From NCBI GenBank assembly GCA_043810925.1, contig JBDRNT010000065.1, positions 1-13,152 of the forward strand: DNA of 13,152 bases, read 5' to 3'. The DNA is from Candidatus Eiseniibacteriota bacterium (GTDB lineage Bacteria > Arandabacterota > Arandabacteria > Arandabacterales > Arandabacteraceae). This document shows, piece after piece, positions 303 through 13,152 of the stretch. Within the stretch, counting starts at the first letter, position 1, and each line of letters begins with the position of its first letter. The position numbers were made by a program, and so were the translations under genes. The notes below the pieces were generated by a model. It searched no databases and was not told the origin of the DNA. It saw nothing but the letters and a program-made list of their open reading frames with translations.

Positions 303-429
303 AATTCGGTGAGGACGATTCGGTGACAGTTACCTGATTATCACGTATGTAATTTGGTGACAGTCTGCAAATTGCCGAGTCAGATCTTCCCCGTGGCCGA
401 GCAGATAATTAGTAAGCTGGCACCGAATT
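303..429. repeat. REP/MITE-like palindromic repeat cluster (AATTCGGTGACAGT family), copy 1
   Basis: AATTCGGTGA (303-312), ATTCGGTGACAGTTACCTGATT (318-339), AATTTGGTGACAGTCTGCAAATT (351-373) and the inverted copy AATTAGTAAGCTGGCACCGAATT (407-429). The inverted copy overlaps the arcC stop codon. Confidence 0.7.
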
Positions 430-1387
430 ACTGGGTGAAGTGGGTGCCGGTCTTGCCGAGGAGGGCTTTTTCGATGCTGGGTGGGTCGGTGACAATCGCC
501 TCTTTGCCACCGTGCTCCAGGAACTCGATGATTGCCCGGATCTTTGGCGCCATGCTGCCTTCCGAGAAGTGCCCTCCTCTTGCCAGATACTCTCTGGCCC
601 CGGCAAGCGTCACGCGGTCGAGCGGCTTTTCATCCGGTTGGCCGAAATTGAGATACACCTTCTCGACGGAGGTCGCTATCAAGAGGAGATCCGCCCCTAT
701 CTGCCGCGCAAGAAGCGATGATGTGTAATCCTTATCAATCACCGCAGCGGTGCCCTTGAGGTTGCCCTCCTCATCTGCGACAACGGGAATGCCCCCGCCC
801 CCGCCCGCCACCACTATGATGCCTGCGTCTAAGAGGTTCCTGATTGCCGCTTCCTCCACGATACGGATGGGCTTTGGTGACGGCACGACGCGCCGCCAGC
901 CGCGACCCGCATCCATGCAGACATTCCAACCATCACATTTCCGCCGGCCCTGGGCGACTTCCTCCGTCATGAACACCCCTATCGGTTTCTCCGGATTCTC
1001 GAATGCCGGATCACCGGGATCAACCTCGACCTGGGTGACCACGGTGGCCACAGTCCGTTTCATGCCACGGCGCAGGAACTCATTATAGAGATTCTGCTGC
1101 ACCGCATAACCTATAGAACCCTGAGTGTCGGCGTCGCAGGCATCGAGCGGCACTTCATGCAACTCGTGGGCGGAAAGTTCCGAGCGACGAAGGATGAAAC
1201 CCACCTGGGGACCGTTGCCGTGTGTTATCGCAACGGTCCATCCATGCTCGATCATGTCGGCTATATGAATGCAGGTCTCGTGGGCTGCCGCGTACTGGTC
1301 CTGGACAGTCATGTGCGCCTTGTCCGAGATCAGCGAGTTTCCACCGATTGCGACAACCGCAAGTTTATGTTTGGTGTTGGGAGCCAT
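428..1387 (-). CDS. arcC: carbamate kinase
   Basis: Motifs VVAIGGNSL, ITHGNGPQVG, DTQGSIGY, PEKPIG, DAGRGWRRVVPSPKP, GGGGIPV, AVIDKD and GSMAPKI. ATG at 1387 overlaps the upstream TGA (TGATG, translational coupling); GTG at 1390 is an alternative start. Confidence 0.96.
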   Translation of the reverse strand: MAPNTKHKLAVVAIGGNSLISDKAHMTVQDQYAAAHETCIHIADMIEHGWTVAITHGNGPQVGFILRRSELSAHELHEVPLDACDADTQGSIGYAVQQNLYNEFLRRGMKRTVATVVTQVEVDPGDPAFENPEKPIGVFMTEEVAQGRRKCDGWNVCMDAGRGWRRVVPSPKPIRIVEEAAIRNLLDAGIIVVAGGGGGIPVVADEEGNLKGTAAVIDKDYTSSLLARQIGADLLLIATSVEKVYLNFGQPDEKPLDRVTLAGAREYLARGGHFSEGSMAPKIRAIIEFLEHGGKEAIVTDPPSIEKALLGKTGTHFTQ

Positions 1388-2424
1388 CACTCAGGTTTCT
1401 CGTCTCCCATCGTAAGCGCCATGACGGCCTTCTGGGCGTGAAGCCGGTTCTCCGCCACGTCGTAGATACATGACCTTTCACCACTGGCAACGTCATCGGT
1501 CACCTCGTGCCCCCTGTCGATGGGCATCGGGTGAGTGAAGATCGCATCCTCGGTAAGCGCCATCTTAGCGGTATCACAGATCCAGTCGGTGTATTTCAGG
1601 GCTTTCTCAATCTCTTGTTGCCTCTGAAACTCGCCACCGATGTATGCCTTGGGACTCATCCAGTTACGTGAATACACAACGTGGGCGCCCTTGTAGCCCG
1701 CTTCTGCATCGTTCGTCATCGAAAGCGTCGCTCCGTTGGCTTTGCAGTTCTCGTGGGTCCATCTGATGATTTCCCCGTCGAGATCATACCCCTCAGGAGC
1801 GGCAACCGTGACGTCCATGCCGAAACGGGAACCTATGAGCATGGCCTCCTGGATGCTACACAGCGAACGGGCAAGCGCTCCGTGCCCCCACGTCACCAGG
1901 AGCTTTTTACCCTTGACGGCCGCGGGGTCGAACCCACCACCGGGAGTAAGCCACTCGATCCACCCCATGATGTCGGCCAGTCCCTGGCAGGGATGGAACT
2001 TGTCATGCGCCATCGAAACCACAGGTATGTCGGCCCACTGGGCATACTCGCGGATCAACTCCTCGCCCTCGCCATACGCGCTCACCTTATCTTCGAGAAT
2101 TCTGATCCCCAGACCGCAGGCATATCTGCTCATCACCCTGGCCGCGTCCTCGATGGTCTCCCCCGCAGTGGTCGCCGTCTTCAGACGCATGCTCTTGGGT
2201 TCAAGAAACTGTGCATGTCCCCCGAGCTCTGTTGCCGCACACTCAAAGCTCTGCCGGGTGCGAACCGACGGGTTATAGAAAAACATAAAGAAGGTGCGGT
2301 CCTTAAGGACATTCGTATAGCCGTAACGGTCGCTCTTCATCTTGACGGCCAGATCGAGCGCCGCCAGCAACTCCTCGTGCGACCAGTCCTGGGTCGTAAC
2401 CAGATCGCGTCCCTTTAGAGTCAC
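1387..2424 (-). CDS. ornithine/aspartate carbamoyltransferase-family protein (divergent, knotted AOTCase/YgeW-like); substrate unknown
   Basis: FYNPSVRTR (STRT-type carbamoyl-phosphate motif), HPCQGLAD, HPMP (in place of HCLP) and AENRLHAQKA. Likely start is GTG at 2424 (VTLKGRDL), preceded by GGAGG at the end of the upstream gene, rather than the ORF-track start at 2514. Confidence 0.88.
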   Translation of the reverse strand: MTLKGRDLVTTQDWSHEELLAALDLAVKMKSDRYGYTNVLKDRTFFMFFYNPSVRTRQSFECAATELGGHAQFLEPKSMRLKTATTAGETIEDAARVMSRYACGLGIRILEDKVSAYGEGEELIREYAQWADIPVVSMAHDKFHPCQGLADIMGWIEWLTPGGGFDPAAVKGKKLLVTWGHGALARSLCSIQEAMLIGSRFGMDVTVAAPEGYDLDGEIIRWTHENCKANGATLSMTNDAEAGYKGAHVVYSRNWMSPKAYIGGEFQRQQEIEKALKYTDWICDTAKMALTEDAIFTHPMPIDRGHEVTDDVASGERSCIYDVAENRLHAQKAVMALTMGDEKPE

Positions 2425-2429
2425 GGTTT

Positions 2430-3500
2430 CTATTTCCCTCCCATCAGGAGCGTCATGATCGCCTTGTGCGCATGCAGGCGGTTCTCGGCCTCGTCGAATA
2501 TCGCAGATCTCCACCCGCTCTTGACATCGGTCCTGTCCATAACGTCATTGTTGACTTCGTAGCCGCGGTCCGCCGGCAGGCAGTGCATATAGATCGCTTC
2601 CTGGTCAGCGGTCTCCATCAGCTCGGATGTCATCTTCCAGCTCTTGTACTTGTTGAATATCTCGAGTGTCTTCTCCGGATTGTTCTCACCGACCGGGGGC
2701 GGGAAGATGGGGGTTGCTGCCCAAGCCTTTGGATACACCACATGTGCCCCCTCGAACGCCGATTCGAAGTCGTTTGTGACGCTGAAAGTGGTACGGTTCA
2801 TCCTGGCATTGGCTTCGCACGCGGCCAGAATCTCGGGATCGAGCTCCATCTCCGGAGGATGGGCGAGCACCGTCTCACAACCCATCAGTGACGCGGCGAT
2901 AATGACGCTCTGGGGAACTGCACGGGGCTTATGCACGCTCGGGCTATAGGCCCAGCTCATGACGAACTTGACACCCTTGAAGGTGCCGAACTTCTCTTTG
3001 ACCGTCATCACATCGGCCAGTGCCTGGCATGGATGATACTTATCGCATTCCATATTTATCACGGGAACATCCGACCAGCGGGCGAACTCCTGCATCATCG
3101 CATGGGCACCGCCATACTCCCAGTCCACCGGATCGCCGTAACAGCGGATCGCGATCCCATCACCGGTGCGGCTTAAGACCCTTGCGACGTCTGAGACACG
3201 TTCGGTGATATACGCGATTTCCTTACCCTCAAGCGCGGGCGTGTAGATCTTGGAGGGATCCAGGAAATGGGCGTGCCCGCCGAGCTGTGTCATACCCGCT
3301 TCAAATGTGTTCCGGGTGCGCAGGCTCTGGTTGTAGAAGATCATGAACAGGGTCTGCGCGCGCAACAGATGATCATGGGGCTCGCGCAGTGCGAACCGGC
3401 GCTTGAGATCGAATGCGACATCAAGCATGGTCTCTACCTGTTCCTTGTCCCAGTCCCGCAGGGTCATGTAGTCTTTGCCTCTAAAACTGTCTGTTCTCAT
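2430..3500 (-). CDS. knotted carbamoyltransferase, YgeW-like
   Basis: FYNQSLRTR, HPCQALAD, YMHCLPADRG and EAENRLH. The segment MSWAYSPSVHKPRAVPQS resembles the YgeW-type WAYSPSxxKPxxVPQ proline-rich loop. Confidence 0.9.
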   Translation of the reverse strand: MRTDSFRGKDYMTLRDWDKEQVETMLDVAFDLKRRFALREPHDHLLRAQTLFMIFYNQSLRTRNTFEAGMTQLGGHAHFLDPSKIYTPALEGKEIAYITERVSDVARVLSRTGDGIAIRCYGDPVDWEYGGAHAMMQEFARWSDVPVINMECDKYHPCQALADVMTVKEKFGTFKGVKFVMSWAYSPSVHKPRAVPQSVIIAASLMGCETVLAHPPEMELDPEILAACEANARMNRTTFSVTNDFESAFEGAHVVYPKAWAATPIFPPPVGENNPEKTLEIFNKYKSWKMTSELMETADQEAIYMHCLPADRGYEVNNDVMDRTDVKSGWRSAIFDEAENRLHAHKAIMTLLMGGK

Positions 3501-5407: not shown

Positions 5408-6550
5408 CTAGTGTAGTGTCTCAGTAATACCTTGACAATATCCACTACCCGTGATACAAACGGGATTATGTGGAAACCAACCGATGCTCTCGTGATTACC
5501 TCCGAACAACGAAGAACCCTGGAAGCCTGGGTGCGTGCCAGGACGACACCGCAGCGCGTGGTCCTGCGCTCGCACATCTGTCTACTCGCCGCCGATGGAA
5601 AATCCAACAATGCGATTGCCCATCAATTGGGAACCTCCCGGCCCACCGTTATTCTCTGGCGCAGTCGATTCAAAGAACAGGGCCCCCGGGGCCTGGCCGA
5701 AGATGCACCCCACGGCCCCAGCCCCCAACGTTTGCATGCGGCCAAGATCAAGGAAATCGTAGAAAGAACCTTGCATACCACACCCACCGATGCGACCCAT
5801 TGGAGTACGCGAACGCTGGCCAAAGAACTCAGAGTCAGCCATTCCACGGTCGCGCGGGTTTGGGATGCGCACGGTTTGCAACCTCACCGTGTGAGAACTT
5901 TCAAATTGTCCAGAGATAAACAGTTCGTCGAGAAGCTCACCGATGTCGTGGGACTGTATTTGAACCCACCGGACAAAGCCATGGTGCTTTGTGTAGACGA
6001 GAAGTCCCAGGTTCAGGCCCTGGACCGCACACAACCCGGATTGCCCATGAAAAAGGGTCGCTGTGCAACGATGACCCATGATTACAAGCGCAACGGAACA
6101 ACGTGTTTGTTCGCCGCGCTCAATGTCTTGGACGGTACGGTGATTGGTACCTGTTATCCCCGCCATCGACACGAAGAGTTTCTCAAGTTCCTGCGCAAGG
6201 TTGACCGGGAGGTGCCCAGAACTCTCGATCTCCATCTGATCCTGGACAATTATGGGACGCACAAACATCCGAACGTCAAACGGTGGCTTAAAAAACATCC
6301 GCGCTTTCACTTGCACTTTACCCCAACCAGTTCCTCCTGGCTCAACCTGATCGAACGCTGGTTCGCTGAAATCACTCGCAAGCGGATTCGAAGAGGTGTG
6401 TTCCGAAGCGTTCCTGAACTCATTGCTGCCATCGAAGAATTCATTGAGATCAACAATCAGAATCCAAAACCCTTTACATGGACCAAGAAAGTGGACGAGA
6501 TATTGGAAAAAGTCGGCCATTGTAAAGCCGTTATTGAGACACTACACTAG
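5408..6550 (+). mobile_element. IS630-family insertion sequence, apparently intact
   Basis: Left end CTAGTGTAGTGTCTCAGTAATACCTTGACAAT versus reverse complement of the right end CTAGTGTAGTGTCTCAATAACGGCTTTACAAT. CTAG (containing the TA target typical of IS630) occurs at both ends (5408-5411, 6547-6550). TTGACA-N17-TACAAA lies just inside the left end. Confidence 0.93.
5468..6550 (+). CDS. IS630-family DDE transposase
   Basis: HTH region (SNNAIAHQLGTSRPTV), THWSTRTLA, and catalytic motifs CVDEKSQVQAL, LILDNYGTHK and SSWLNLIERWF. Likely start is ATG 5468. The stop TAG lies in the terminal CTAG. Confidence 0.95.
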   Translation: MWKPTDALVITSEQRRTLEAWVRARTTPQRVVLRSHICLLAADGKSNNAIAHQLGTSRPTVILWRSRFKEQGPRGLAEDAPHGPSPQRLHAAKIKEIVERTLHTTPTDATHWSTRTLAKELRVSHSTVARVWDAHGLQPHRVRTFKLSRDKQFVEKLTDVVGLYLNPPDKAMVLCVDEKSQVQALDRTQPGLPMKKGRCATMTHDYKRNGTTCLFAALNVLDGTVIGTCYPRHRHEEFLKFLRKVDREVPRTLDLHLILDNYGTHKHPNVKRWLKKHPRFHLHFTPTSSSWLNLIERWFAEITRKRIRRGVFRSVPELIAAIEEFIEINNQNPKPFTWTKKVDEILEKVGHCKAVIETLH

Positions 6551-6809
6551 GTCGCAGGCAAGATGGGCAGGAGGGGTGCGATAGCGGGTGGGGTCGGGAG
6601 CATGGGTGCCACCGCCTTGCCATCTGTCCACACCTTTGCTGTCGCAACCCCAGCACACGAATACACTCCACTCCTGCTGGGCATCAATGACCGCGCAGTC
6701 ACTCTCTCCGGTCGCGCTTGTAAGTACGACCCCGGCCTTAATGTTTGCGGTACGGCCTGCTTCCATCAACACGACCTCGACTTAATCTACACATCATCCC
6801 ACGTAGTGA

Positions 6810-7632: not shown

Positions 7633-7719
7633 GGTTTCCGCTTAACTCCGGACCTCACGACACTGCTCTGGCTCGTGAGGCGGTTTGTGGCTGGGTGACC
7701 ACGGAGTTAAACTGAAACC
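7633..7719. repeat. central branched inverted repeat between the two promoter/attI modules
   Basis: GGTTTCCGCTTAACTCCG (7633-7650) and CGGAGTTAAACTGAAACC (7702-7719) are complementary at 16 of 18 positions. Inner hairpin CCTCACGA (7653-7660)/TCGTGAGG (7673-7680). Confidence 0.75.
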
Positions 7720-7748
7720 GCCTAACACTCTTCCCGCGAGTAATTGTG

Positions 7749-7777
7749 TTGACAACCGCCTGATTCTGGGGTATTTG
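7749..7777 (+). promoter_or_regulatory. putative cassette promoter (Pc), rightward
   Basis: TTGACA (7749-7754), 17 nt, TATTTG (7772-7777), about 80 nt upstream of the first cassette boundary. Confidence 0.6.
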
Positions 7778-7829
7778 TGGAGAGTATTCAGCAGAGTGTT
7801 AGACGGAAAGAGTGGCCATCTAGAACGTA

Positions 7830-7861
7830 CTTAACAGGATCCGTATAAGCAGCAGTTGGCA
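7830..7861 (+). other. putative attI site heading the cassette array
   Basis: CGTATAA-GCAGCA-GTTGGCA has the same TAA-N6-GTT spacing as attI1 (TAA-AACAAA-GTT). GTTGGCAC (7855-7862) is the exact complement of GTGCCAAC (8289-8296) at the end of cassette 1. No attC-family hairpin precedes it. Confidence 0.7.
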
Positions 7862-7881
7862 CTACGGAAATGGAGGAACAC

Positions 7882-8286
7882 ATGGATTACTCTGAAAGCC
7901 TCGAAGGGATGCCTGGCGATCCGAACGGTCCTGCCTATCGGAAGACTGAGACACGGACCGGTCCTCCTCTCGACTACGTCGCAGAAAAACTCAAACTATC
8001 CTTGGAAGCGCTCCATAGCACAATCCGCGCAATCCAGGAGACGGTTCCAGAGAATCTGCCTCAGCCTCAGGCAGCCATCGGATCGACCTATTCGGTCAAG
8101 CAGGATGCTCTCTTCTCACCCGCATGGGACGCGTTCCGCTGTGGACTTACAGCGTTTCTTGCTTTACAGAATTTCTTGGTTCTTGCGAATGACCAGGGCA
8201 TTTTCGACCGCCTCTTGGGGTATTCGAGGGAGGAGTTCAGGAATTGGCTGGGCAACATAGAAAGAGAAGGTTTAGTCTCCGGGTAG
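7882..8286 (+). CDS. gene cassette 1: hypothetical protein (~134 aa)
   Basis: The ORF fills the interval between the GTTGGCA core and attC1. ATG 7882 follows GGAGG (7872-7876); ATG 7870 is an alternative. No motif recognised. Confidence 0.75.
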   Translation: MDYSESLEGMPGDPNGPAYRKTETRTGPPLDYVAEKLKLSLEALHSTIRAIQETVPENLPQPQAAIGSTYSVKQDALFSPAWDAFRCGLTAFLALQNFLVLANDQGIFDRLLGYSREEFRNWLGNIEREGLVSG

Positions 8287-8289
8287 GTG

Positions 8290-8389
8290 TGCCAACCAGT
8301 GGTTCGAGACGGACTGCCTTGCGGCGTCACGGCTCTTGCAGACGCAATAGCCTTGCCGCCTTGCCCGCCGTTCAGCCACGCCGTTAGAT
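8290..8389 (+). repeat. attC site 1 (100 bp)
   Basis: R'' TGCCAAC (8290-8296), 5 nt, then L'' GTT[C]GA[G]ACGG pairing with CCGTTCAGC, 6 nt, R' GTTAGAT (8383-8389). Shares the internal GCGGCGTCACGGCTCTTGCAGA..GCAATAGCCT..GCCGCCTTGCC sequence with attC2 and, more loosely, attC3. Confidence 0.9.
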
Positions 8390-8403: not shown

Positions 8404-9243
8404 ATGAAGTTGCTTCTTATTGTGTCAGTGATGTGTGTGATTGCATCGCCTGCTTTGTCTTACGAGGGTCTGGGCGAGGCTTTCCAGGCGACCAATCGGG
8501 AGGATGCAGTTCAATATATCATTGACAAGTGCCGTCTGGATTGGACGACTGGGTGGCCGACGGGCCACCCTCGCCAATGGAACGACGTCAGGGCCTATGT
8601 CTCACCTAACCGTCGCTACTGCCTGCTAAGCAAAGCAGGAGCGTCCGAGTGGGGTCAGGGCGGGGATGCTGAGTACTGCCTAGTCGGCGTGGATTCCGGG
8701 CCGATTTGGCTGAAGCACGGAACGATTGGCGGTGAACCGGGAGTTTCAGATCACGGGACTGTCGCCATATTCGAGGGGTGGAAGAGTGCCTCTGAGTTGA
8801 GGTATATTCCTGTTGGGCTCCTCATGATCAGCGCCGATGACGACACTTTCTTCACCAGAAGGTGGTCGAACCATATTCCCCGTCCGATTCAGGGGAAGCG
8901 CTTGTCCGAGAGCTACGGATTCAGTCTCGACGGTCGCTTCTTCATCGTTACAATGAACGTCGCAGATCCTGATGAAGACACTCCGCGGGCCAGCGGATAC
9001 AACAATACCATGTTGCATTGCATCGATCTTGAGGAAGGATCTGAGCGAGTCGAGGATCTGGGCCACTTCTGGCCCAAGACGCACGAGATTACTGACAAGG
9101 GTGCTGAGCTCACTGGGGAGTGGCAGCGCATTCTCAGCACACATGGCTCGTATGACTATGGATTCTACCGCATAACTTGGTCACCGTGGCAGGTTGAGAA
9201 GATTGTCGTTGGTACCAGAGACTTGGGCGAAGTTAGCCGCTAG
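8404..9243 (+). CDS. gene cassette 2: exported hypothetical protein (279 aa), probably beta-rich
   Basis: Signal peptide MKLLLIVSVMCVIASPALS and an AAGGAAGG RBS. Cassette ends GTTAGATGAC (8383-8392) and GTCATCTAAC (9243-9252) are perfectly complementary. VSPNRRY and FSLDGRF resemble beta-propeller blade motifs (inference). Confidence 0.85.
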   Translation: MKLLLIVSVMCVIASPALSYEGLGEAFQATNREDAVQYIIDKCRLDWTTGWPTGHPRQWNDVRAYVSPNRRYCLLSKAGASEWGQGGDAEYCLVGVDSGPIWLKHGTIGGEPGVSDHGTVAIFEGWKSASELRYIPVGLLMISADDDTFFTRRWSNHIPRPIQGKRLSESYGFSLDGRFFIVTMNVADPDEDTPRASGYNNTMLHCIDLEEGSERVEDLGHFWPKTHEITDKGAELTGEWQRILSTHGSYDYGFYRITWSPWQVEKIVVGTRDLGEVSR

Positions 9244-9245
9244 TC

Positions 9246-9253
9246 ATCTAACC
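9246..9253 (+). repeat. attC site 2, left fragment (R'' box), separated from the rest by the IS
   Basis: ATCTAAC (9246-9252) lies 2 nt after the cassette 2 stop. Joining it to 10836 onward restores ATCTAACCAGTGG..., matching attC1 TGCCAACCAGTGG.... Confidence 0.85.
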
Positions 9254-9327
9254 CCTATGAGGCCTACCCGAGTCAAGCGCAAAAACGCCCGCGTTAAGCT
9301 GGCGGGGTAGCCGGCTTTGTCTTTTCA

Positions 9328-9741
9328 TCAAGACCGAACGACCTGACTTAGTTTCACATCTGGCGGTGTGGGCAGATGCTGTCCCACACAAACCCCTATA
9401 CAAGGTTCAGGGCTCCGTGAAAGGAGCCTGCGAAGGTGGTGAGCCTTCGCGCCCTAGAAACACATCGGATCCCTCTTAGTGTCCCAGTCAAACGACGGGC
9501 TGCACGGGTGAGCATGCGCCAGTTAGTTTTGGGCTCACGTGAGGGGCAGGACAGGTCAGTCTTGACCGATATGTCATGTCGGAGCGGAGCGGCCATCCAA
9601 TCCAGCGCGAGAGGCTGCCTGAGATAAGCCAAGTAGCGCAGGCATGGTCTTATCCACAAGCATTTTGGCACATCGCATCTACCTAGCAGGCTTCTCACGA
9701 GACGGCTCCAGTTAGACGTGTGGCTTGACCGCTCCCTCCGA
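9328..9741 (-). ncRNA. candidate bridge RNA/seekRNA of the IS110/IS1111 element
   Basis: Non-coding region 3' of the transposase with two closed domains: 9579-9741 (TCGGAGCGGAGCGG/CCGCTCCCTCCGA) and 9328-9565 (TCAAGAC/GTCTTGA, GACCTG/CAGGTC). Internal hairpins at 9366-9389, 9408-9430 and 9430-9450. Contains short matches to the donor junction and to the attC target. Confidence 0.65.
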
Positions 9742-9742
9742 G

Positions 9743-10753
9743 TCAATTGCTAAGGAATCGTTTCATGTCGAATGCCCTTTGTCTGAGGAGCACGAAGTAG
9801 ACAGCTCTTCCGAGTTTGTGGGCGAGGATGGAAAGTGACTTAGCCTTTCCGTATCTTGCCTGAAGTCTGTTTCGATACTTCATCCCCTCGGAGAATGCCC
9901 ACTTAAGGTGCATGTTCCCGATCTTCCTGCCCGAGGTGCCATACTTCTTGCCGGCGGACTCCTTGGAGCATGCTACGAGCCGGGCATAAGATACGAAGTT
10001 GCTCACTGTAGGGAAGCGCGATATGTCATGAATCTCATACAGGATGGCCAGGGAGAGAATCTTGCCTATGCCGGGTACAGTCTTTAGCAGATAGAGAGAC
10101 TGGGAATCATGGTGCCGGGCGTTCTTCAAGATGAAGAGTTCCAGGCGTTTCATGAGTTGGTCGTAGTGGTCTATGAGTTCCAGGTCAGCGCTGATACTCA
10201 TGCTGACGTCGGGATCGGAGAACTGCTCGGCAACCCCGGCGCGGTGAGTCTTGTAGGCAATCTTCTTGCCGAATGGTGGGAGGTTGTACTGGCTGTTGGT
10301 GTTCTGGATGTGACCTAAGAGATCAGCCCGCCGTCGCATGAGGTAGTGACGTCGTCTGAGGAGATCTCTGGTGGCTCTCATCTCAGGTGGGTAGACATAG
10401 GCCTGGGGTATCATTCCGCCCCTAAGGAGGCCGGCGATCTTTCGGGAGTCTACACGATCGTTTTTGGCCTTCCCTCCATGTATGGCTCTCATGTATAATG
10501 CATGATCGAGGACGAAGGGGATGGTTTCCCTATGACAGAGGTCTGCGAGCCAGTACCAAGCGAACATGCACTCAGCACATACGACGATGTCCTCTCGGTA
10601 AGGCTGGATGACTTCGAGGAAGGCATCTGGCTCGGCGGGGATGTTGCGGTGAAGGACGACGTCTCCGTGGTCGTCGAGGACACAGACGTACATGGACCTG
10701 GTGTGCAGATCGACACCACAATAGAAGAGGTGCTCTTTGGTATAGAATCTCAT
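9743..10753 (-). CDS. IS110-family DEDD recombinase/transposase (possibly carrying a short in-frame deletion)
   Basis: RuvC-like DEDD residues (CGVDLH, VCAECM, AKNDRVDS), LKTVPGIGKI, and ESAGK (catalytic serine region). AAGGAGG RBS upstream. Confidence 0.95.
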   Translation of the reverse strand: MRFYTKEHLFYCGVDLHTRSMYVCVLDDHGDVVLHRNIPAEPDAFLEVIQPYREDIVVCAECMFAWYWLADLCHRETIPFVLDHALYMRAIHGGKAKNDRVDSRKIAGLLRGGMIPQAYVYPPEMRATRDLLRRRHYLMRRRADLLGHIQNTNSQYNLPPFGKKIAYKTHRAGVAEQFSDPDVSMSISADLELIDHYDQLMKRLELFILKNARHHDSQSLYLLKTVPGIGKILSLAILYEIHDISRFPTVSNFVSYARLVACSKESAGKKYGTSGRKIGNMHLKWAFSEGMKYRNRLQARYGKAKSLSILAHKLGRAVYFVLLRQRAFDMKRFLSN

Positions 10754-10835
10754 TGGGGTCTCCTCCTTTCAATGAGATGGGTTACCCCGAGCATACGCTC
10801 GGGAGGCTCCTGAGGGGAGGCCTCAATGAGTATCC

Positions 10836-10926
10836 AGTGGCTTGAGACGGACGGCCGTGCGGCGTCACGGCTCTTGCAGAAGCAATAGCCTCGCCGCCTT
10901 GCCGTCGCCCAGGCACACCGTTATAC
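10836..10926 (+). repeat. attC site 2, right fragment (reconstituted site 99 bp)
   Basis: AGTGGCTTGAGACGGACGGCCGTGCGGCGTCACGGCTCTTGCAGAAGCAATAGCCTCGCCGCCTTGCC...GTTATAC (R' 10920-10926) is closely similar to attC1. Confidence 0.9.
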
Positions 10927-10950: not shown

Positions 10951-11613
10951 GTGAGAAGACTCTTCCGGCCTGGTATTGTGCTTACGGTCCTGTTCGCGTT
11001 GACGGTCCCAGCCAGTGAGGGTCGCGAGCTGAAGGCCGCACTGGCCTTATCAGCTTCGGCCGGATCCGGGATTGCAGGAAGAAAATGGCACTTTCAAGGC
11101 GTGAATGATGTGAGCGTGAGTGCGCCGAAGGCATGCGGCTTGGCCGTTGAATACGGCCCGGTGCAATCTGCGTGTGGCACGGAGCTCTTGTTAATCGTGG
11201 AGGGATCGGTCTTCACTGAAGGAACTAGCGAGACTGAACTGCAGGATCGTCCATTCGGTACCGCCAAACTGGCCATCAATTCAGCGGCAGGCCTAGTATA
11301 CGTTTCCCTTTCGGTACCCAACCGATTAGCCCCTTTCGTGCGACTCGGGCTAGGAGCGGCAAGAGTCCGGTTCGAAGAGACATATTCCGACGCCCGGCTC
11401 AGAGATATTGACATAGATTATTGGGACCTTGCTTATGGGCTCGGCGCCGGCATCCAATATTCGATCACACCAAGGATCAGCATCTCAGCATTCTACGATG
11501 GGATCTACGTCCCCGGTGACCGGCTTAGCCCCAGGAGTAATGGCCTTGAAACGGGGATTCGCACCGGGTGGGGCGCAGAGTGGACCGGACTGAGGGTTCA
11601 CATTCGCCCATAG
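10951..11613 (+). CDS. gene cassette 3: outer-membrane beta-barrel protein (8-stranded OmpA/OmpW-like class)
   Basis: Signal peptide and amphipathic strands APFVRLGLGAARV, LAYGLGAGIQYSITPRISISAFY and TGLRVHI. GGAGG RBS with a GTG start. Cassette ends GTTATAC (10920-10926) and GTATAAC (11619-11625) are complementary. Confidence 0.8.
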   Translation: MRRLFRPGIVLTVLFALTVPASEGRELKAALALSASAGSGIAGRKWHFQGVNDVSVSAPKACGLAVEYGPVQSACGTELLLIVEGSVFTEGTSETELQDRPFGTAKLAINSAAGLVYVSLSVPNRLAPFVRLGLGAARVRFEETYSDARLRDIDIDYWDLAYGLGAGIQYSITPRISISAFYDGIYVPGDRLSPRSNGLETGIRTGWGAEWTGLRVHIRP

Positions 11614-11618
11614 GTATT

Positions 11619-11715
11619 GTATAACTTGTGCATTCAGCGGTCTTGCTGCGGTGTTACGGCTCTGGCAGAACAAGAGCCTCGCCACCTTGCCTGCCGCTGA
11701 CGCGAGACGTTAAGG
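11619..11715 (+). repeat. attC site 3 (97 bp)
   Basis: R'' GTATAAC, 5 nt, CA[T]TCAGCGG ... CCGCTGACG, 6 nt, R' GTTAAGG (11709-11715). Internal GCGGTGTTACGGCTCTGGCAGA..AGCCTCGCCACCTTGCC is related to attC1 and attC2. Confidence 0.88.
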
Positions 11716-11728
11716 GCAAGGTGAGCCG

Positions 11729-12226
11729 ATGGTAGATAAACTGACGGAGAAACGGAAGCGGACGGGTCTGAGACCTTTGCTCGCCATACTCATTGCCACT
11801 GGTGTCGTGGCCGGTTGCTCGGCAGACAAGGGCAGCGGGCCCGAGGCAGTCAACCATCGCCCAACCATCGAGGAGATAGCTGACACGACAGCAGTGGTCG
11901 GAGACACGCTCTACCTACAAGTCACGGCTTCCGACCCAGACGGTGATGACCTGGAGTTCAGCTTGGTTATCCCTTGCAGTTGGTCAGAGATGCAGCAAGG
12001 TCGCTGTCCTATTGCATCTATCAGGTCTGCAGACCTTGTGTTTTGGTTTTGGCCTCGTACGTTCGATCTATCCTTTCGTAGTTTCAGCATAAAGGTGGAC
12101 GACGGTCACGGGGGACGAGATTCTACTGCTTTTGGGGTCGCGGTTTCGTCCTCAGGAGGCTCAGGAGCGACGATCATGCAACAAAAAGTGTGGGCTTTCT
12201 TCGAGAGTGTAAGATATTTTGTGTAA
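11729..12226 (+). CDS. gene cassette 4: lipoprotein with an Ig-like/cadherin-like domain, 3' end replaced by IS256 sequence
   Basis: Basic N-terminus, hydrophobic core and lipobox VVAG-C. NHRPTI, ASDPDGDDLEFS and VDDGHGGRDS fit cadherin-like/Ig repeats. Codons from 12203 on (ESVRYFV*) come from the IS256 IR. Confidence 0.75.
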   Translation: MVDKLTEKRKRTGLRPLLAILIATGVVAGCSADKGSGPEAVNHRPTIEEIADTTAVVGDTLYLQVTASDPDGDDLEFSLVIPCSWSEMQQGRCPIASIRSADLVFWFWPRTFDLSFRSFSIKVDDGHGGRDSTAFGVAVSSSGGSGATIMQQKVWAFFESVRYFV

Positions 12227-13152
12227 ATGGCTATAGTTTATACTCAGACAAAGGAGAGACTCTATGGCCAAGCAAGATCCCACCGACAATCTGCTGGATG
12301 AGCTCCTTGCGGGCAAGACGGCCGAGGAGATCCTCGGTAAGGACGGGCTTCTCGATGATCTGACGAGGCGGCTTGTCAATAGGGCGCTCGAGGGTGAGAT
12401 GACTCACCACCTGGGCTACCCACCTCACTCCCCGGCTGGTCGCCACAGCGGCAACTCCCGCAACGGCAAGACGACGAAGATCGTCAAGGGTAAGACTGGC
12501 GAGATGGAGATCGCCGTTCCTCGTGATCGCAACAGCGCCTTCGAGCCCGAGTTGGTCAAGAAGCACCAGCGCCGGCTTCCCGGGTTTGATGACAAGGTGG
12601 TCGCACTCTATGCGCGAGGCCTTACCACTCGGGAGATCACCGGACATCTTAAGGATCTCTACGGGGTCGACGTATCGCCATCGTTGATCTCGGCGGTGAC
12701 GGACACGGTGATCGAGGATGTGGTGGCCTGGCAGAGCCGTCCTCTGGATGCGGTCTATCCTATAGTCTATCTGGACGCGATCCATCTTAAGATGCGCAGT
12801 GAGGGCCAGGTACGCAACCAGGCTGTCTATCTGGCCCTGGGTATCAACCTGGATGGCGGCAAGGACCTTCTGGGGCTTTGGATCGGCGAGAGCGAGGGCT
12901 CGAAGTTCTGGCTTGGGGTATTGACTGAACTTCAGAACCGGGGGGTTGAGGACATCCTGATCGCCTGTGTGGATGGCCTGAAGGGCTTTCCGGAGGCGAT
13001 CGAGACGGTCTATCCCAAGACTCAGGTTCAGCTCTGTATCATTCACCTGGTGCGTCACTCGCTTCGCTACGTGAGATGGACGGAGCGAAAGCGGGTGGCC
13101 GCTGACCTGCGGTCGATCTACACAGCGGCAACGGCAGAGGCGGCAGAGCAGG
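12203..13152 (+). mobile_element. IS256-family insertion sequence (left end; continues beyond the window)
   Basis: GAGAGTGTAAGATATTTTGTGTAAAT at 12203 has the IS256-family terminal IR pattern and is followed 61 nt later by the transposase. Confidence 0.88.
12264..13152 (+). CDS. IS256-family (Mutator-like) transposase, partial; missing from the ORF track because it has no stop in the window
   Basis: ATG 12264 after AAGGAG reads MAKQDPTDNLLDELL...ALEGEMTHHLGY...NSRNG...VPRDRNSAFEP...LYARGLTTREI...YPIVYLDAIH...ELQNRGVEDILIACVDGLKGF...QLCIIHLVR. Confidence 0.96.
   Translation, partial: MAKQDPTDNLLDELLAGKTAEEILGKDGLLDDLTRRLVNRALEGEMTHHLGYPPHSPAGRHSGNSRNGKTTKIVKGKTGEMEIAVPRDRNSAFEPELVKKHQRRLPGFDDKVVALYARGLTTREITGHLKDLYGVDVSPSLISAVTDTVIEDVVAWQSRPLDAVYPIVYLDAIHLKMRSEGQVRNQAVYLALGINLDGGKDLLGLWIGESEGSKFWLGVLTELQNRGVEDILIACVDGLKGFPEAIETVYPKTQVQLCIIHLVRHSLRYVRWTERKRVAADLRSIYTAATAEAAEQ

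Follow-up and report, generated by a model that had tools for sequence, protein, structure and literature searches.

A deep-branching ISGsu4-like insertion sequence within an integron attC site, and the RNA proposed to guide it there

How does an insertion sequence come to lie, to the base, inside the recombination site of an integron cassette, and what would its presence mean for the cassettes on either side? The question is raised by a 13,152-bp stretch of DNA from Candidatus Eiseniibacteriota bacterium (contig JBDRNT010000065.1, assembly GCA_043810925.1), here called the window, which is a complete contig and one of the 185 contigs of a metagenome-assembled genome that is 91.7 % complete. 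A 1582 bp element lies there within attC2, the second of three attC sites in a cassette array. Our data are consistent with a reading in which the insert is an ISGsu4-like, deep-branching element of the DEDD (IS110) superfamily, with the anatomy of an IS1111-type element, that was guided by RNA into attC; we put the probability of this reading at roughly three in four.

A precise insertion into the second attC site

The cassette array occupies the right half of the window on the plus strand, and each cassette ORF is followed by an imperfect palindrome of the attC type with R″ and R′ core boxes, all in one orientation (Table 1). At all three sites the cassette rule was obeyed, in that R″ complements the TTRRRY tail ending the preceding site: GTTGGCAC at 7856 pairs with TGCCAAC, GTTAGAT at 8383 with ATCTAAC, and GTTATAC at 10920 with GTATAAC. 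Such complementarity between R″ and the preceding R′ is the signature of cassette boundaries made by an integrase.

The insert splits the R″ box of attC2 between ATCTAA and CC, and CC stands both at 9252-9253 and at 10834-10835. The left joint reads GTCATCTAA-CC-CCTATGAGG (9246-9262) and the right joint GAGTAT-CC-AGTGGCTTGAGACGGAC (10828-10852). Excision of 9254-10835 in silico restores ATCTAACCAGTGGCTTGAGACGGAC, and removal of 9252-10833 or 9253-10834 gives the identical product, the register being ambiguous by 2 bp because the core CC is present at both joints. Aligned across the joint, the restored attC2 (102 nt) agreed with attC1 at 85 of 105 columns and with attC3 at 72 of 108, a likeness far beyond chance. 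As the transposase gene lies on the minus strand and the cassette ORFs on the plus strand, the insert is antisense to the cassettes. An earlier note on this DNA had proposed a precise, antisense insertion into attC2 with a CC core at both joints, and on each of these points it was right.

The transposase matched the Pfam families PF01548 (DEDD_Tnp_IS110; E 1.1e-13, 51.7 bits, cut-off 29) and PF02371 (Transposase_20; E 1.2e-16, 61.3 bits, cut-off 21.3), giving the N-terminal DEDD/RuvC-like and C-terminal Transposase_20 domains of the IS110 family in the broad ISfinder sense. An alignment of 17 sequences, IS4321 and an ISKpn4-like protein among them, showed D15, E61, D99 and D102 to be invariant. 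In the orientation of the transposase, the element runs from the core GG through an 8-nt extension, a 12-nt repeat and 60 nt to the ATG, and the gene is followed by a 489-nt non-coding region that closes with the inverted repeat GGGTAGGCCTCA, the 4-nt TAGG and the core GG. The 12-bp subterminal repeats, TGAGGCCTCCCC and TGAGGCCTACCC, agree at 11 of 12 positions and fall within the length of about 11-13 bp of IS1111 repeats. As in IS1111, the long non-coding region is at the 3′ side, with 489 nt between the stop codon and the end versus 82 nt before the start. The terminal extensions, 8 and 4 nt with a common 2-nt core, depart from the IS1111 rule of 7 bp on the left and 3 bp on the right, which is described together with the IS1111 layout in a passage of PMC11187229. 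The element is thus of the IS110 superfamily, as the earlier note had it, and its layout is like that of IS1111: the inverted repeats are subterminal, the left end is short and the 3′ non-coding region long. A 116-aa ORF on the minus strand (9396-9746) was rejected as a gene, since it had no Pfam match and overlaps the RNA domain described below.

No further copy of the element was found in its own assembly. A distant IS110-like gene with one internal TGA, 26 % identical to the window transposase, lies on another contig of that assembly (C59:568-1398). In 12 other genomes of the same family no match was found to cassette 2 (8404-9253), and with it no empty-site allele. Five public sequencing runs contained at most 0.09 of the words sampled from the stretch; at 90 % likeness, the four runs compared yielded only short fragments of related elements and no joint across 9253/10836. 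One contig from an RNA library was identical over 9933-10078, which does not demonstrate transcription.

Insertion sites of the ISGsu4-like family

A search of one genome per species (GTDB set) gave 337 candidate stretches, of which 319 encode relatives of the transposase. The best 80 of these 319 (55-77 % identity) were taken with their flanks for site analysis, and came from Nitrospirota, Acidobacteriota, Gemmatimonadota, Binatia, Eisenbacteria, Planctomycetota, Armatimonadota, Chloroflexota, Actinomycetota, Zixibacteria, Desulfobacterota-type and proteobacterial bins. Four had no downstream DNA; among the 76 scored, both ends were recognized in 54, counts that retain a few right ends (e.g. 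that of locus L017) probably mis-set on an internal look-alike.

The joints of the family read ...GTCNGCTGCANGCGCT-TG-ATACTCAT...TARG-TG-TTAGGC... and GTT stood at the right joint in 49 of the 52 relatives with both ends and enough right flank. The strict attC motif GTTRRRY was present there in 26 of the 52, against a background of 267 per 315,840 positions (0.00085). Empty sites were rebuilt for the 44 loci that had GTT at the joint and 150 nt or more of left flank, and their hairpins closed by AAC...GTT had a median of -16.95 kcal/mol, as against -6.6 kcal/mol at 254 control GTTs from the same loci (Mann-Whitney p 2.4e-8). Flanking ORFs ran mostly antisense to the transposase, both on the left (27 antisense, 3 sense, 12 unclear; n=42) and on the right (28 antisense, 1 sense, 11 unclear; n=40). 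The window element and its relatives thus share insertion near the 5′ (R″) end of attC, in antisense orientation. The earlier note had considered that other copies might sit in unrelated sequences outside attC; most of the relatives do not, with exceptions taken up below.

Identical elements were found at different sites of one assembly (L009/L010, L031/L033 and L062/L063). The core differed between the left and right joints in 12 of the 52 relatives (TG/GG in 5, GG/TG in 4, TG/AG in 2 and TG/CG in 1; L002, L005, L006, L012, L019, L020, L023, L024, L026, L027, L028 and L039 are among them), a pattern to be expected where the cores of donor and target are allowed to differ and one of them is left at each joint.

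A candidate guide RNA

Directly 3′ of the stop codon lies a structured RNA domain that we regard as a candidate seekRNA, or the target-binding part of a bridge RNA. It comprises the first ~170 nt after the stop and is conserved: over 35 sequences, 95.9 % of the cells were paired, and compensatory changes occurred in 15 of 16 pairs. Double-sided changes were seen in 135 cells, as against 40.2 (sd 7.7) in shuffled alignments and 6-16 with the partners slid. A conserved structured RNA in the long non-coding end is what a seekRNA or bridge RNA calls for.

Two segments of this domain vary together with the flanking DNA across the family. The right guide lies on the 5′ side of an enclosed loop (NNNNNAAC-TGGAGCC), and its reverse complement matched the right flank at 3.31 of positions 4-9 on average, versus 2.87 (sd 0.107) in shuffles, none of 20,000 shuffles scoring as high; the test covered 45 of the 55 family loci, the remainder being without a recognizable anchor or enough flank. 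Among the natural pairs are GCACAAC with GTTGTGC, GTATAAC with GTTATAC, and CCGCCGCCCAAC with GTTGGGCGGCG(A), which matches at 11 of 12 positions. These pairs tolerate mismatch, with agreement in 76 % at position 4 and in 51 % at position 6. The left guide, on the 3′ side of the loop (NNNNNNN-KG-ATTGGA), has the same sequence as the left flank and core rather than its complement; it agreed with the left flank at 3.08 positions versus 2.17 (sd 0.16) in shuffles, again with 0 of 20,000 as high, over 50 unique pairs. The RNA thus carries co-varying segments complementary to both target strands, in figures uncorrected for the relatedness of the sequences. The guide that pairs with the top strand comes first, which is the order of IS1111-type seekRNAs: according to PMC11187229, these are encoded in the 3′ non-coding region, where the segment matching the top strand lies 5′ of the one matching the bottom strand, and it is by seekRNA that ISKpn4 and ISPst6 target attC.

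In the window and in L003 the left guide, an inner motif and both joints all carry GG, and most relatives have TG throughout. The inner motif copies the right end and core and stands in the conserved block CCTCRATARG-KG-TTTGG; together with the block that holds the complement of the left end, it might tentatively be taken as the donor-reading part of the RNA. The candidate right donor guide is GATGAGTTTCTAGG, whose ATGAGT is the complement of the left-end ACTCAT. This identification is likewise tentative: a clade with ATTAKT at this place has the left end ACTAAT, but other variants do not follow.

A putative split promoter spans the joint between the right and left ends: in 54 of the 55 family loci, TTGACN precedes KGATACT there by 17-18 nt. 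A junction promoter of this kind is described for ISEc11 in PMC11187229. We infer that the element would be excised as a circle, the joining of its ends assembling this promoter, and that the resulting transcript would yield both the transposase and the structured RNA of the 3′ non-coding region. The RNA segment CGUCUAAC would pair, on the right-hand side of the crossover, with GTTAGA(T)G, which complements the R″ box of attC; the segment GCGCUGG has the sequence of the left flank and 2-bp core, and hence would pair with the opposite strand. Recombination at the core, which reads GG along the transposase gene and CC on the plus strand, would then place the element inside R″, antisense and without target duplication. 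As the right guide is a copy of the motif best conserved among attC sites, the family would land in such sites in many hosts.

Judged by this putative guide code, neither attC1 nor attC3 is a good second target. The earlier note had named attC1 as an unoccupied potential target, and it does share the left side and core of attC2; on the right, however, its GTTGGCAC agrees with the right guide at only 4 of 8 positions, versus 7 of 8 for attC2. In attC3, 6 of 7 positions suit the right guide, but the core is AG and the left side fits poorly. Ahead of cassette 1 stand two short palindromes that resemble attC and have no ORF, at 7641-7712 (GCTTAAC...GTTAAAC) and 7720-7804 (GCCTAAC...GTTAGAC); R′ of the second reads GTTAGACG, a perfect match to the right guide, yet its core is TG and its left side unrelated.

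The crossover falls at the GTT of the bottom strand. This GTT has as its partner, once the site is folded, the AAC cleaved by the integrase. Since 1.58 kb of insert separates R″ from the remainder of attC2, the R box needed by the integron integrase should be unable to form. The site would then be dead, and cassettes 2 and 3 together with the element would make up one unit between attC1 and attC3; the earlier note's view that these cassettes are locked together is a reasonable inference. Experimental evidence on how attC-targeting insertions affect cassette mobility is described as limited in the discussion of a survey (PMC11616780).

Table 1. Coordinates of the cassette array, the element and its parts in the window. 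Sequences of the two ends are given in transposase orientation
Feature	Position	Strand	Remarks
Cassette ORFs	7870-8286, 8404-9243, 10951-11613, 11729-12226	+	
attC1, intact	8290-8389	+	Imperfect palindrome; R″ TGCCAAC 8290-8296, R′ GTTAGAT 8383-8389
attC2, left remnant	9246-9253	+	R″ box ATCTAA and core CC (9252-9253); complementary to TTAGAT opening cassette 2 at 8384
attC2, right part	10836-10926	+	L″ through R′ GTTATAC (10920-10926)
attC3, intact	11619-11715	+	R″ GTATAAC, R′ GTTAAGG
Inserted element, 1582 bp	9254-10835	-	Register free by 2 bp owing to the CC core
Right end	9254-9269	-	GGGTAGGCCTCA, subterminal inverted repeat (9258-9269), then extension TAGG (9254-9257); conserved in relatives
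TTGACT, -35-like promoter half	9271-9276	-	Would be completed by GATACT only on circular joining of the ends
Inner motif ATAGG-GG	9393-9399	-	Copy of right end and core; in conserved block
Structured RNA domain, candidate seekRNA or target-binding part of bridge RNA	9571-9742	-	10-pair closing stem
Candidate left target guide GCGCTGG	9602-9608	-	Ends in core GG, then conserved ATTGGATGG; co-varies with left flank and core in the family
Candidate right target guide CGTCTAAC	9711-9718	-	Would pair with GTTAGACG, actual site GTTAGATG; co-varies with right flank in the family
Transposase gene, 336 aa	9743-10753	-	DEDD_Tnp_IS110 and Transposase_20
Left end	10814-10835	-	Core GG (10834-10835), extension ATACTCAT (10826-10833), subterminal repeat TGAGGCCTCCCC (10814-10825)

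Placement, alternatives and known systems

The earlier note had assigned the element to the IS1111-attC subgroup, and this assignment did not survive comparison. Against IS4321 (plasmid R751) the window transposase showed 21 % identity with 20 % gaps (E 0.003); full-length relatedness to IS1111 kin was not found, as judged by way of IS4321. At least 5000 plasmid records, mainly from Klebsiella and Escherichia, carry IS4321/IS5075; when all 72,556 plasmids were searched by tblastn (E <= 1), 1031 records matched, with no sign of those carriers in the organism tally or among the 60 matches listed. The sole match in the Protein Data Bank was IS621 (E 0.0063). An ISKpn4-like transposase taken from metagenome contigs (locus L095) aligned with IS4321 over its full length (30 % identity, E 1e-44), and with the window protein only locally, over 162 residues (22 %, E 0.002). 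Peptide words of the window protein instead located the ISfinder entries ISGsu4 and ISMahy12 in the source data of the seekRNA paper, with long identical stretches such as ECMFAWYWLADLC, YVYP.EMRATRDLLRRR and HLKWAFSE, as judged by eye. Its kin in ISfinder are thus these two, and not members of the IS1111-attC group. In the published ISfinder identity matrix (a supplement), ISGsu4 and ISMahy12 share 17 % with ISPst6, ISKpn4 and IS4321. Pairwise comparison, together with this matrix for ISGsu4, puts the element outside the clade of ISPst6, ISPa21 and ISKpn4. Because its kin share so little with those elements, we place it, on these protein comparisons, in a deep branch filed by ISfinder under IS110, as an ISGsu4-like member.

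The insertion point tells the two groups apart as well. As an IS1111-attC reference set, metagenome contigs were scanned with a 22-nt right-end motif from ISKpn4/ISPst6 supplement sequences, which gave 59 loci, all carrying the motif by construction. The motif was followed by ATA, 6-8 nt and GTTA in 57 of the 59, so that these elements, too, lie antisense at the R″ end. Their crossover lies 8 nt from GTT in 46 of the loci, 7 nt in 10 and 6 nt in 1, and 2 have no GTTA; in the ISGsu4-like family the distance is 0 nt.

That the insert is nonetheless an ordinary member of the published IS1111-attC group (ISPa21, ISPst6, ISKpn4, ISPa25) is therefore very improbable. It does enter the same end of attC in the same antisense orientation as is stated for that group in part of PMC3001079, and it has subterminal repeats and a 3′ non-coding region, but the local 22 % to an ISKpn4-like protein, the 21 % to IS4321, the plasmid search, the 17 % shared by its kin, an insertion point that differs by 7-8 nt, and extensions of 8 and 4 nt with a 2-nt core in place of 7 and 3 all speak otherwise. 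Still less credible is the suggestion that the transposase gene is a captured cassette or chance neighbour and the precise insertion an assembly artefact of a repeat-rich metagenome bin. The source is indeed a metagenome assembly of 185 contigs with a single copy of the element, and the best public run shares only 0.09 with the stretch. Yet the halves of attC2 rejoin to the exact base and agree with attC1, the ends of the element bear the conserved repeats of the family at the expected distances, and the same joints recur in 54 relatives from other assemblies. A further account, which we consider unlikely though clearly more plausible than these two, is that a short linear sequence (about NNNCTKG/GTTAGRC) alone guides the element, the attC fold being irrelevant and the family unspecialized on integrons. 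Guides of about 7 + 7 nt do explain the sites, some rebuilt sites have no hairpin, and ISGsu4 has been reported within a gene. Against it stand the GTT at 49 of 52 right joints and the strong hairpin and antisense-ORF signals, by which the family is in practice one of cassette arrays. The RNA-guided mechanism is the same in this account, which differs only on selection for structure or niche.

Several observations weigh against RNA-guided insertion into attC by an ISGsu4-like element, or against parts of that reading. Only half of the relatives show the textbook GTTRRRY, and 7 of the 44 rebuilt sites have no AAC...GTT hairpin. A strict minimum-free-energy test, in which GTT had to pair with AAC, was passed by 19 of 47 sites and failed by the window's own; it was replaced by the constrained-hairpin comparison against control GTTs given above. 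A table in PMC11077965 places ISGsu4, as a 1275-bp insertion, inside a protein-coding Geobacter gene, so that relatives also occur outside attC. With regard to the RNA, an Rfam scan of the whole window at E <= 1 gave no match, the left guide GCGCTGG agrees with the window site CCACTGG at only 5 of 7 positions including the core, and the guide-flank covariation can be inflated by the relatedness of elements and hosts. A 9-nt match, TCAAGCCAC, had been considered as the left guide and was rejected, since it falls on a CAAGCC block that is conserved whatever the flank and is probably mostly coincidence; a 7-nt match between the non-coding region and the left flank, CCGTCTC, was set aside on the same ground, its block being conserved regardless of flank.

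The window copy itself is also imperfect. Its transposase is without 11 residues (AAVLFLRGNPQ in L002) that are kept in 14 of 14 aligned relatives and belong to a conserved stretch that looks helical (FSEAAVLFL). In the DNA the loss shows as a clean, in-frame gap of 33 nt between 9888 and 9889 on the minus strand relative to L002 and L003, and all full-length transposase matches in the search for relatives span 10-11 codons more than the query. The gap is bordered by the short similar sequences CCGAGG and CCCAGGG. The element ends and the RNA domain look intact. Because of the missing residues, the copy may be unable to move by itself, needing a helper or being fixed in place. As for the cassettes, neither the 13-kb contig nor the whole assembly (91.7 % complete) gave an integron integrase scoring above cut-off, and the array has no adjacent integrase and attI. 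The best match to the integrase model, on another contig (C112:2426-3199), is a 321-aa tyrosine recombinase that scored 111.9 + 81.1 bits against a cut-off of 265, without profile positions 179-236. The array looks like an attC cluster without an integrase in this bin, and the excision ‘lock’ may have nothing to lock against.

Other mobile elements surround the array. A DDE_3 (IS630-type) transposase gene (5432-6550, plus strand, within 5410-6551) lies just upstream, bracketed by imperfect inverted repeats (CTAGTGTAGTGTCTCAG... and ...GAGACACTACACTAG, judged by eye), and represents a second, unrelated insertion sequence. An IS256-type gene (Transposase_mut, E 1.8e-97; 12264-13151) begins immediately behind the last cassette ORF and is cut off by the end of the contig; this third mobile element probably explains the contig break at its position. 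At the far side of the window (428-3500, minus strand) are a carbamate kinase-like gene and then two adjacent ornithine/aspartate carbamoyltransferase-like genes, whose ORFs overlap at 2430-2514.

To our knowledge, the only insertion sequences known to target attC belong to one small clade, which has been studied in clinical class 1 integrons. The kind of element described here is already known, from the IS1111-attC group and the targeting of attC by seekRNA, and current understanding is not overturned. The lineage, the exact crossover point and the guide code of the ISGsu4-like family were not found in the literature searched. Our work adds a distant lineage with the same habit, which enters attC at another base, has a guide code that can be read and is represented in environmental genomes by hundreds of natural insertions. 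A wider proposal, which we advance tentatively and at somewhat less than even odds, is that RNA-guided parasitism of integrons arose a second time, independently, in the ISGsu4-like clade, and that this lineage is much the more widespread of the two. The guide RNA of the clade would copy the universal R″ core (RYYYAAC), so that one family could invade the attC sites of unrelated integrons across many phyla; its crossover at GTT, opposite the integrase cleavage point in the folded site, would reversibly fuse neighbouring cassettes. The family offers a natural experiment in how RNA-guided recombinases become specialized on a structured, conserved target, a means of predicting frozen cassettes in sedentary integrons, and more programmable pairs of recombinase and RNA.

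Among known systems, the IS1111-attC group (ISPa21, ISPst6 and ISKpn4, with ISPa25 more distant) comes closest in design, with a DEDD transposase, subterminal inverted repeats, a long 3′ non-coding region and, as stated in part of PMC3001079, insertion near the R″ (5′) end of attC antisense to the cassettes. ISKpn4 and ISPst6 choose their target by a 3′-encoded seekRNA with the top-strand match first, a feature proposed for the window element as well. In contrast, the transposases are barely alignable (22 % over 162 aa, and 17 % for the ISfinder kin), the IS1111-attC crossover lies 7-8 nt further in, whereas that of the ISGsu4-like family is at the R″ GTT itself, and the terminal extensions and repeats are different. 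The non-coding region of the window element is about twice as long. The hosts differ too, being uncultured environmental phyla for the ISGsu4-like family and Pseudomonas or Enterobacterales for the IS1111-attC group. The named relatives are ISGsu4 and ISMahy12 of the deep IS110 branch in ISfinder, an identity judged by eye, and for neither did the literature search find a printed statement on attC targeting or a guide RNA. ISGsu4 is shorter than the window element, at 1275 bp, and the part of PMC11077965 that lists it reports it in a gene and not in attC.

IS621 and the other bridge RNA recombinases of the IS110 group, as described in part of PMC11208160, are alike in their DEDD and Tnp domains, a 2-nt core common to donor and target, two guides that read opposite strands beside the core, and a promoter assembled at the circle joint. 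Unlike the window element, IS621 has its RNA in the left end; the sequence match between them is marginal (E 0.0063), and the donor-binding loop is only tentatively placed in the window element. Group IIC-attC introns are a further mobile class that likewise invades attC at its 5′ end, in antisense orientation relative to the cassettes (PMC3001079), but the window element is a DNA transposon, with no reverse transcriptase and no intron RNA.

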